In this document: piece by piece, positions 12,001 to 15,000 of the stretch | Position numbering within the stretch: the stretch's first letter is position 1 | How the letters are laid out: every line of letters begins with the position of its first letter | Assembly (NCBI GenBank): GCA_038209745.1 | Contig: JBBQXJ010000094.1 | Coordinates: 1-17,310 of the forward strand | Reading direction: 5' to 3' | Length of the DNA stretch: 17,310 nucleotides | Source of the DNA: Verrucomicrobiota bacterium | GTDB lineage: Bacteria > Verrucomicrobiota > Verrucomicrobiia > Limisphaerales > CANJSG01 | Made by a program: the position numbers

Positions 12001-15000
12001 GCGCAGGCGAACGGTCGTCCAACACGCCGCCGCCTTCGGACACCTGCTTGAGCCGTTGGAGCGCCCCGATCATGGCGTCTTTGCCGGCGAGTTTCGCGGC
12101 CATGGCGTCGGCGGCAAACTCACGGCGGCGCGAATAGGCGAAGACGATCAGACTGGCGAGAATGCTGAGGAAGACTTGGCAGACCATGCTGGCGATCCAG
12201 TAGCCGATGCCCACCCCGCCCCGGTTGTCGTCACCGCGACGGAGGAAGTTGTCGATGATGAGTCCGAGGATGCGGGAGAGGAACACGACGAAGGTGTTCA
12301 ACACGCCCTGGAGCAGGGCCATCGTCACCATGTCGCCGTTGGCCACATGGGAAACCTCGTGGGCGAGCACACCCTCGATCTGGCGCAGGCTCATTCCACG
12401 GATCATCCCGGAACTGACAGCCACCAGCGCATTGTTGCGCGAAGGGCCGGTGGCGAAGGCGTTGACCTCCGGGCTTTCGTAGATGCCGACTTCCGGCGTG
12501 CGGATGCCGGCCTTCTTGGCCTGCTCGGCGACCGTCTGCTTGACCCACGCTTCGGCCTCGCTGCCGGGCTGGCCGATCGGCTTGATGCCGTAGGCCATTT
12601 TGGCGATGAACTTGGACATCGCCAGCGAGATGAAGCTGCCGGCAAAGCCGATGACGAGGGAGATGATCAGCAGTTGCTGGTAGTTGATGCTGACCCCGCC
12701 GACGGCGTTGCGTTCGAGATATCCGCGCACGCCCAGCAGGCTGAGCACCACGGAGACCACCAGGAGCACCGCGACGTTGGTCGCCACAAACAGAAAGATA
12801 CGTTTCATGGTTCGATCGGGCCACGGTTCGGCGGCCCGGGAGGACAGACAGCCAGAACGGCTCCCTGATCAAGTGGAATTCGGGCAAACCAATTCCACTT
12901 GCGCTAAAAGCCTAATTCGCAGGGCCGGTTCCGAATGTCTCGATGAACTTCAGCGTGGCCCGGATGTCGTGGCCGTTCGCCTTCCAGTCGTTCGCCTTCA
13001 TCGTGCTTTTGGGCGAGGCGAATCGCGCCCACAAGACAAGCCGGCAAAGGAAAGGATGCTGGCACGACCGGGTCCAACGAGGCCGGCATTGACGCCACCG
13101 CGCAGCGACGGCACCGTCCGCCGGTCCGAAATGAACTTGCAGCGTGTCAATTCCATCGTGGTGCCGAAGCAAGCGGCTGGAATTGTCGCAGCCATGATCG
13201 CTCTCGCGTGGGCCATGCAAATTGGCCGCCCGAGCGGGTTCTGAAGGACGAAAACAATACCAACGCCCTTTTCGAAAACCCGCCTGGCAGCCGCCGGCGG
13301 GTTTTTTCCTGCGGCTCAGCAACGAGGTTTCCCGGGGCCGATCGACACCGAGAATGAAAACCGAAACCGGAGCGCCTCCATCCAGGCTAGCAGTCACTAC
13401 GGCCTTCGCCGCCGTTTACATTGTGTGGGGTGCCACCTACCTCGCCATTCGCATGGGCGTCGCCACGTTGCCGCCCTTCCTGATGGCAGCGGCCCGGTTT
13501 TTGGTCGCCGGCGCCCTGCTGCTCGGCTGGACCTGGCTGCGGGGAGCAACCCTGCCCACGGCCCGGCAATGGAGGAACTCAGCCATCACAGGCTCACTCC
13601 TCCTGCTCGGCGGCAATGGGTTGGTGTGTTGGGCCGAGCAGACCGTCAACTCGAGCTTGGCCGCCCTGATCATTGCGGCGTCGCCCATGTGGTTCGCCCT
13701 GTTCGAATGGGCCCGTCCCGGAGGCCGAAGACCCACCGCGATCACCAGCCTCGGCTTGATTGTAGGGTTTAGCGGCGTGGGCCTGCTCGTTCTGGGCACT
13801 CCTCACGGTTCCGGATCCGCAGCCTCGACCTCGGTCGCGGGCGTGTTGGCTTTGGTAGTGGCCTGTGCGGCGTGGGCCGGCGGCTCGATCTTCTCGAAAC
13901 ATTCGGACAATCCGGAATCACCTTGGGTCTCCACAGCCGCTCAAATGCTCACCGGCGGCGCCTCGCTGCTCGGGGTGTCGCTGCTGACCGGCGAACCGGG
14001 ACGTTTCAGTTTTGACCAAGTGTCGACGCGATCATTCCTCGCCTTCCTCTATCTCGTGGTCTTCGGTTCCTGGATCGGCTTCGGCGCCTACGTCTGGCTG
14101 TTGCAGAATTGTGCCCCGACAAAAGTAGCAACCTACGCCTATGTAAATCCGGTGATCGCCACGCTTCTTGGTTGGTGGGTGCTGGACGAGCCCCTGACCG
14201 CGGGGACAGGACTCGCTGCGTTGGTCATTTTGGGCGGGGTCTTGATCGTGCAGTGGCCGCGGGCGCAAACACCGCGACCAGCCCCGGCGCCGGTGGTCGA
14301 AGCTCTCAGCCCAACCAAGTCGGACGGAAAGGCATGATCAAAGCCATTTGCTCCGCCCATTTGGAACTCGTTCCAAGACCCGAGACCCTCGCGGGGATAA
14401 TTTCCGAAAAAACTCCCCTTTTCGCCAACGTGGATTTTGGCCAGGAGCCTGCTTTCTAGGCAGGTATGAGAAAGGTTCTGCTGACAGTGCCGGTATTGGC
14501 CATCCTCGCTGCCGGGGGCGCAATCGCCATGTCCAGGAGCAACGTCATGTTCAAACTGGACCCGAACGTGAACCGGTTCCAAGAACAGGCGGAAAGCCTG
14601 ATCCTTGGATTGCAGCAATATAAAGAATTCATGGGGACCTTCCCCACCGGCTCGAACGCCGAAATCACCCGCTCGATCAACGGCCAAGGTGATAAGCGCG
14701 TCCTGATCCTTGTCGGTCGGAAGGGCGAAGTGAGCCCGAAGGGGGAGATCGTCGATCCATGGGGCACGCCGATCCAGATCTTCTATTCCCACGACGGCGT
14801 GCTGATCCGCTCGGCAGGCCCCAACAAGGTCTTCGAGGACAGCAAGGTGAATTCAGACGACATTTTCCGGACGACGAACTGACGTCGTCCGGCAGTTGGG
14901 GTGCGTTGTTTGGGTAGGCTGGCCGGGGTCGTGTTATGGCGCGACTCCGGCCTTTTCGCTCGACGCCGGGGGCGTCCCTGCCGTGGATCAAATCCTTTGT

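Follow-up and report, generated by a model that had tools for sequence, protein, structure and literature searches.

An EamA-family transporter gene in a Verrucomicrobiota bacterium is preceded by a short leader reading frame, a predicted antiterminator and an intrinsic terminator. Sequence comparison and modelled folds together indicate that this element is almost certainly a ribosome-coupled transcription attenuator. A single Trp codon lies ahead of the switch strand in this leader and in most leaders of two other gene families, and its retention makes it somewhat more probable than an even bet that this lone codon is the control codon. The fuller reading, in which the Trp codon gates a response to translation stress, stands about evenly balanced between right and wrong. 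The window is the whole stretch of DNA analysed, 17,310 nucleotides of contig JBBQXJ010000094.1.

Architecture of the EamA leader element

The window sequence and its folding reproduce the 37-codon leader, antiterminator and terminator that the genome-wide survey's note had placed before the EamA gene g03529 (Table 1). The GCGGGTT/AACCCGC pairing proposed there also holds, positions 13234-13240 being complementary to 13277-13283. A start site placed from the -10-like hexamer would imply a leader 5' UTR of about 7 nt ahead of the ATG; a consensus scanner reported no promoter for this leader in the window. The spacer between leader stop and terminator hairpin is A/C-rich. Against Rfam leader families, the best window match was an unrelated sRNA at 19.8 bits, with a cut-off of 60. 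The EamA reading frame is open upstream as far as a TTG at 13222, running through the terminator, an extension that is probably incidental. Three further sites in this genome carry the exact terminator pattern, and these resemble ordinary end-of-gene terminators.

Table 1. Positions of the leader element, its neighbours and the leaders used for comparison
Feature	Position	Strand	Remarks
-35 hexamer TTGACG, predicted promoter	13089..13094	+	TTGAC at the same place in relatives
-10-like hexamer CACCGT	13112..13117	+	Placed by eye; 17 nt past the -35 hexamer
Leader ORF, 37 codons, MNLQRVNSIVVPKQAAGIVAAMIALAWAMQIGRPSGF	13131..13244	+	ATG 13131, TGA 13244
Trp codon 27, candidate control codon	13209..13211	+	Sole Trp of the leader; 8 codons ahead of the switch strand
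Switch (antiterminator) strand	13228..13247	+	Core GCGGGTT 13234-13240; overlaps the final leader codons and stop
Intrinsic terminator hairpin with U-tract (six T)	13274..13307	+	5' arm common to the antiterminator
EamA/DMT transporter gene, YedA-like, 327 aa	13354..14337	+	Pfam EamA 1e-36; NF008432 1.9e-75, below cut-off
htpX, divergent neighbour outside the element	11897..12808	-	NF003965 above cut-off
MFS leader ORF, 54 codons, with terminator, before g02567	C52 17911-17747	-	Sequence and fold
DAHP-synthase leader, 24 codons, terminator	L263:2581-2655 (G000 C60)	-	4 Phe, 2 Trp, 1 Tyr
Leu-rich classical attenuators before leuA across the order	L225 (G000 C35), L164, L168-L175

Pfam assigns the window protein to the EamA family and NCBIfam describes it as YedA-like; no relative of solved structure was found by sequence. 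The survey had spoken of ribosome-stalling control of efflux, and of this the ribosome-coupled attenuation is well supported. Efflux, in contrast, is a family resemblance: the EamA protein reaches 253.8 bits with the YedA model NF008432 over residues 11-306, short of the cut-off of 270, and the MFS protein lies far below every family cut-off, with a weak likeness to MdtH/YdeE. The attenuator targets also extend beyond exporters, to a 116-aa protein and to tRNA arrays.

Predicted folds and switch wiring

Folding gives the EamA terminator -23.2 kcal/mol (z -3.95), a value matched by 0 of 200 shuffles, and the antiterminator form -22.0 kcal/mol (z -2.03), matched by 7 of 200. In the predicted folds the two structures are mutually exclusive, and the antiterminator overlaps the leader end: in nascent RNA without the terminator 3' arm, the last leader codons pair with the terminator 5' arm, forming the -22.0 kcal/mol helix. 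This antiterminator is part of the ribosome-free minimum-energy nascent fold in 17 of 20 EamA leaders (the exceptions are L007, L044 and L064), and it is likewise predicted in all 10 MFS and all four further EamA leaders folded. A trpL-like hairpin 1:2 sequestering the switch strand is therefore not the preferred form in those 17 of 20 folds, and the window copy forms an alternative hairpin, a weak one, only if the terminator arm is omitted. With the antiterminator as the predicted ribosome-free default, termination should require a ribosome at the leader end, and a ribosome stalled further upstream should let transcription continue.

Alignment of 27 EamA sequences shows covariation in the terminator stem, with both sides changed in 12 cells (0 of 500 shuffles), a result that leans towards structure because the sequences were chosen by a terminator pattern. 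The switch strand changes along with the stem across leaders. Structure prediction gave no consensus for the part of the alignment that covers the leader.

A predicted default of read-through is what a general ribosome-stall sensor would show. Under this alternative, which resembles bmrB and PA5471.1 and is unlikely though worth serious weight, any drug-induced stall would free the switch strand and induce efflux and repair genes, the long leaders would offer many possible stall sites, and the Trp codon would merely tune basal pausing. However, a Leu-rich, Leu-sensing leuA leader of the same order, the only one folded, has the same predicted default fold. The layout thus appears to be the lineage's general attenuator design and is uninformative about the signal, and default read-through was rejected as proof of a general stall sensor.

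Distribution of the EamA and MFS elements

EamA genes matching at E 1e-25 or better occur in 59 of the 251 genomes of the order. Upstream DNA was read by eye in 59 genomes, 40 of them as fetched regions, leaving out G230, which lacks upstream sequence, and not counting weak paralogue matches. Leader and terminator precede the gene in 50 of the 59 and in none of the other nine, by counts made by eye from alignments and in part checked computationally; four of the 50 have a poor tail or stem (G060, G099, G145, G189). The short leader ORF expected of an attenuator between promoter and gene is therefore conserved in 50 of the 59. Of 40 fetched EamA regions, 32 were recovered by a sequence model, which picked up none of the by-eye negatives; its training sequences match by construction. 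The Trp motifs KWAAKR, AWPSK, IWPV and GWQP listed by the survey are all present in EamA leaders.

In labelled records, the EamA element is present at 7 of 9 Verrucomicrobiota loci and at 0 of 41 loci of other or unnamed phyla. Phylum-wide spread had been expected and was dropped, since the element is absent from all 20 held-out phylum genomes outside the order; together with the 41 other loci, this marks it as lineage-limited. Two-gap pattern counts over the 251 genomes were discarded because they missed known positives, and one of their matches led to the leuA control. In the held-out genomes, EamA lies downstream of a DJ-1/PfpI gene in 11 and of a MocR-like gene in three (by eye); a Pfam check confirmed DJ-1 for one piece and gave no match for the MocR-like piece. 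One Gemmatimonadaceae record (L094) has EamA behind an Lrp/AsnC gene. These neighbours outside the order suggest an amino-acid-like substrate.

The MFS gene is found in 67 of the 251 genomes, and on C52 its 54-codon leader and terminator are as the survey described them. Besides this genome, 30 of the 40 read have leader and terminator before it (18 of the first 20 and 12 of the second 20). The elements reported for G025, G027 and G028 were all seen, the leader of G028 has no Trp, and the three congeners read (G001, G003, G004) lack the element. The sequence model recovered 25 of 40 fetched MFS regions and no by-eye negatives, training sequences again matching by construction. Short motifs common to EamA and MFS leaders, AYRSACW (G009, G098) and AAWPV (G148, G215, G041), suggest a common origin or exchange. 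The MFS gene is followed on the same strand by a gene for an ABC-F-type ATPase with two ABC domains and an Xtn linker (L074:551-2050; G000 C52, minus).

A single Trp codon ahead of the switch

Comparative analysis of the leaders points to one conserved residue. Of the 50 EamA leaders, 48 have a Trp ahead of the switch strand, G152 and G196 carrying it only inside that strand; of the 30 MFS leaders 25 do, with no such Trp in G244, G028, G057 and G145 and an ambiguous case in G070. The genomes behind these counts are related and not independent. In an alignment of 25 EamA leaders, chosen among Trp-bearing ones, Trp is the only invariant column at a mean identity of 23%. The codon typically lies 7-12 codons ahead of the switch strand, a range chosen after looking, and about 21 codons from it in this genome's MFS leader. 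Clusters of at least two Trp codons, as in trpL, are not the pattern here: the window leader has one Trp, some EamA leaders have two spaced ones, and tandem Trp codons (WW) appear in one of 14 aligned MFS leaders. The lack of cognate-codon runs noted by the survey is compatible with amino-acid or tRNA sensing: the single Trp codon is itself conserved, and its place 8 codons before the switch is also that of the Trp codons in this genome's DAHP-synthase leader (10 and 8 codons).

A third family strengthens this pattern. The gene for a 116-aa protein, for which the Atlas gave only unnamed clusters, is present in 56 of 101 genomes, and all 16 of the loci read, out of 30 returned, combine a leader and a terminator with a Trp ahead of the switch. 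Trp sits 7-8 codons before the switch in 13 of these leaders; the other three have lost the usual Trp and each has another, upstream of that place by 9 or 4 codons or downstream of it by 3. This genome's own copy likewise has a Trp-bearing leader.

A model search over 61 genomes supplied controls. The 20 near-full-length matches fetched from outside the EamA and MFS families comprised six leuA leaders, three leaders before the 116-aa protein, six long leaders, one other Trp-bearing leader and four non-attenuators. The leuA leaders share the layout, carry Leu runs and have Trp in 0 of 15 cases, this genome's included, though they are shorter.

Residues beside the Trp vary among leaders, and so does the RNA pairing around it. 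It seems that a Trp codon is under selection to be retained at some point ahead of the switch, while its neighbours, its spacing and its pairing are not fixed; a codon-level sensor accounts for this better than would an arrest peptide or a constraint on the RNA.

An RNA constraint would have TGG kept for pairing; in a related form, the ORF would be incidental and the terminator either constitutive or under the control of some other factor. Several leaders do have an upstream hairpin in which the GG of the Trp codon pairs. Yet the U of this codon stays U in the hairpin loop where other loop bases vary, the pairing context differs among families, and the leaders throughout share an open frame with its start near the promoter and its stop on the switch strand or next to it. 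Such a reading is barely credible.

TnaC and SecM are cases of a Trp side chain at work in the exit tunnel. A nascent-peptide sensor of this kind, arresting the ribosome for a metabolite or drug, perhaps the transporter substrate, would account for the Trp that most leaders have roughly 7-12 residues ahead of the switch, preceded by small hydrophobics and often followed by Lys or Arg. Near the place of the Trp, His or Tyr stands in some of the MFS leaders that lack it (by eye), and the Lrp/AsnC and, by eye, MocR-like neighbours of EamA elsewhere would suit an amino-acid-like ligand. However, no column besides Trp is conserved, the Trp-to-stop spacing ranges from about 9 to 23 residues, and the replacement Trp codons sit at other positions. 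Arrest 10-12 residues past the Trp would moreover occupy the switch strand and leave the gene off. This sensor is accordingly quite improbable.

Targets of the Trp-bearing leaders

Trp also occurs in all six long leaders, at codon 12 in five and at codon 21 in one. Five of the six (L229, L230, L231, L232, L235) head spare-tRNA arrays, and the tRNA-array leaders have about 50-60 codons, one Trp and a terminator. The L230 array includes an RtcB-family gene, seemingly frameshifted, a Y-RNA-like match below threshold, and tRNAs of many anticodons, a CCA-anticodon tRNA among them (by eye). These leaders may answer to the same signal as the EamA and MFS leaders, as inferred from the shared Trp alone.

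A plain Trp-starvation attenuator would have the transporters import Trp or a precursor. Classical logic fits it, as does spacing: the DAHP-synthase leader of this genome has Trp 10 and 8 codons before a switch placed by eye. Nevertheless, the best family matches of both transporters are annotated exporters, Trp leaders also precede many-anticodon tRNA arrays and the 116-aa protein, and trpE, like trpS, has no leader upstream in this genome. B. subtilis ycbK, an EamA member in the rtpA operon, is under T-box control besides TRAP. As a putative efflux gene with tryptophan-linked control, ycbK resembles the present case and would favour Trp starvation, yet in the available text of its report it is controlled by the TRAP protein and not by a leader-coupled terminator (PMC3971595). 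On balance, Trp starvation is very improbable.

For the stall sensor, the target set is in its favour: two transporters and spare-tRNA arrays, one of them with an RtcB-like gene. The leaders are also Ala-rich ahead of the Trp, and an Ala-rich context is that of chloramphenicol arrest. Against it, retention and regain of Trp in three leader families would go unexplained.

Trp-gated attenuation by translation stress, the preferred reading, would work as follows. A ribosome trailing RNA polymerase to the leader end would cover the switch strand, which would let the terminator fold and keep the transporter off. Were the ribosome instead held at the Trp codon, as a rule 7-12 codons earlier, the switch strand would be left free and transcription would read through. 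UGG decoding would serve as a gauge of translation stress, not for control of Trp synthesis. The trigger, for which support is less, could be slow UGG decoding. Low charged tRNA-Trp could cause it, when Trp is short or out of balance or when TrpRS inhibitors or analogues act, and so could damaged or under-modified tRNA. Any other upstream stall would probably induce too.

Two precedents make translation stress a better fit to the target set than Trp economy. The accessible part of one study has translation antibiotics inducing an Anabaena tRNA operon together with rtcB (PMC10272220), an array that also speaks for the stall sensor. In P. aeruginosa, the trpL leaders have non-adjacent Trp codons and under-modified tRNA-Trp de-attenuates trp genes, according to the available text (PMC13434334).

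Several points weigh against Trp gating. One Trp codon is a weak sensor beside the Leu runs of leuA or the mixed aromatic codons of the DAHP-synthase leader, trpE and trpS are unleadered, and two EamA and four MFS leaders lack Trp before the switch, with one MFS case ambiguous. The Trp of this genome's MFS leader is remote from its switch, and exporters and tRNA/RtcB arrays are no obvious answer to Trp shortage. The kinship of the genomes, the shorter leuA leaders and the post hoc 7-12 codon range count here as well. A wider extension, an order-wide translation-stress regulon without a regulator protein, would join EamA, MFS, the 116-aa protein and the tRNA/RtcB/Y-RNA arrays, with the single Trp as a 'canary' codon whose slow decoding turns on efflux and repair jointly; this is tentative and on the unlikely side.

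Relation to known attenuators

Structurally, the element resembles the classical attenuators E. coli trpL and P. aeruginosa trpL1/trpL2, which, as far as the accessible text goes, likewise combine a leader ORF, a competing antiterminator and intrinsic terminator, and Trp upstream of the switch (PMC13434334). Unlike classical trpL, the leaders here usually have one Trp in 30-55 codons, most copies have no predicted switch-sequestering hairpin, and the targets are transporters, the 116-aa protein and tRNA arrays rather than trp genes.

The B. subtilis bmrB leader of bmrCD shares a long leader (53 aa in bmrB), transcription attenuation, a transporter target and read-through upon stalling, but differs in a terminator inside the leader ORF, a predicted anti-antiterminator, an ABC exporter and demonstrated antibiotic induction; the available part of the paper names no conserved Trp for that leader (PMC4191407). 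In the P. aeruginosa route from PA5471.1 through PA5471 to mexXY, leader translation likewise reports ribosome disruption and is tied to efflux, and also to a gene that neighbours a putative release-factor gene; there, in the text available, a 13-aa leader acts via an anti-repressor, whereas here the leader would act directly on the transporter (PMC3516279). E. coli toiL is similarly a uORF that senses several kinds of stall, yet the accessible account describes translational control and Rho-dependent termination without an intrinsic terminator (PMC12121999).

The attenuation mechanism class is therefore already known. No paper on these leader elements was found, nor Verrucomicrobia among the matches listed, subscription papers and supplements being outside the search. 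This analysis adds a connection between gene families, the use of leuA leaders as a negative control, and Trp codons that were regained. Should the Trp codon be the sensor, a single rare codon would suffice to gate several unrelated stress genes, broadening attenuation past amino-acid operons and drug-specific arrest peptides. Should the leader respond only to stalls of every kind, it would be a bmrB-like switch found in a new lineage, of use but unremarkable. The leader system also offers a direct test of what YedA-like EamA proteins do, and likewise the 116-aa protein common in Verrucomicrobiota.

Further observations at EamA loci

In several families, a small ORF lies between terminator and EamA gene, such as the 63-aa ORF with motif E-x-LYR-x-LGL at L018:566-757 (minus); others are in L058, L060, L061, L064, L066-L069 and L088. 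It had no Pfam or NCBIfam match and no usable Atlas match, and was not found in this genome. The window EamA protein is closer to that of G002 (76%) and to those of Opitutales-labelled records (57-69%) than to those of other congeners (57-58%). The leaders of the window, G002 and the Opitutales-labelled records have the same Trp-to-stop spacing, hinting that EamA gene and leader may have been transferred together.
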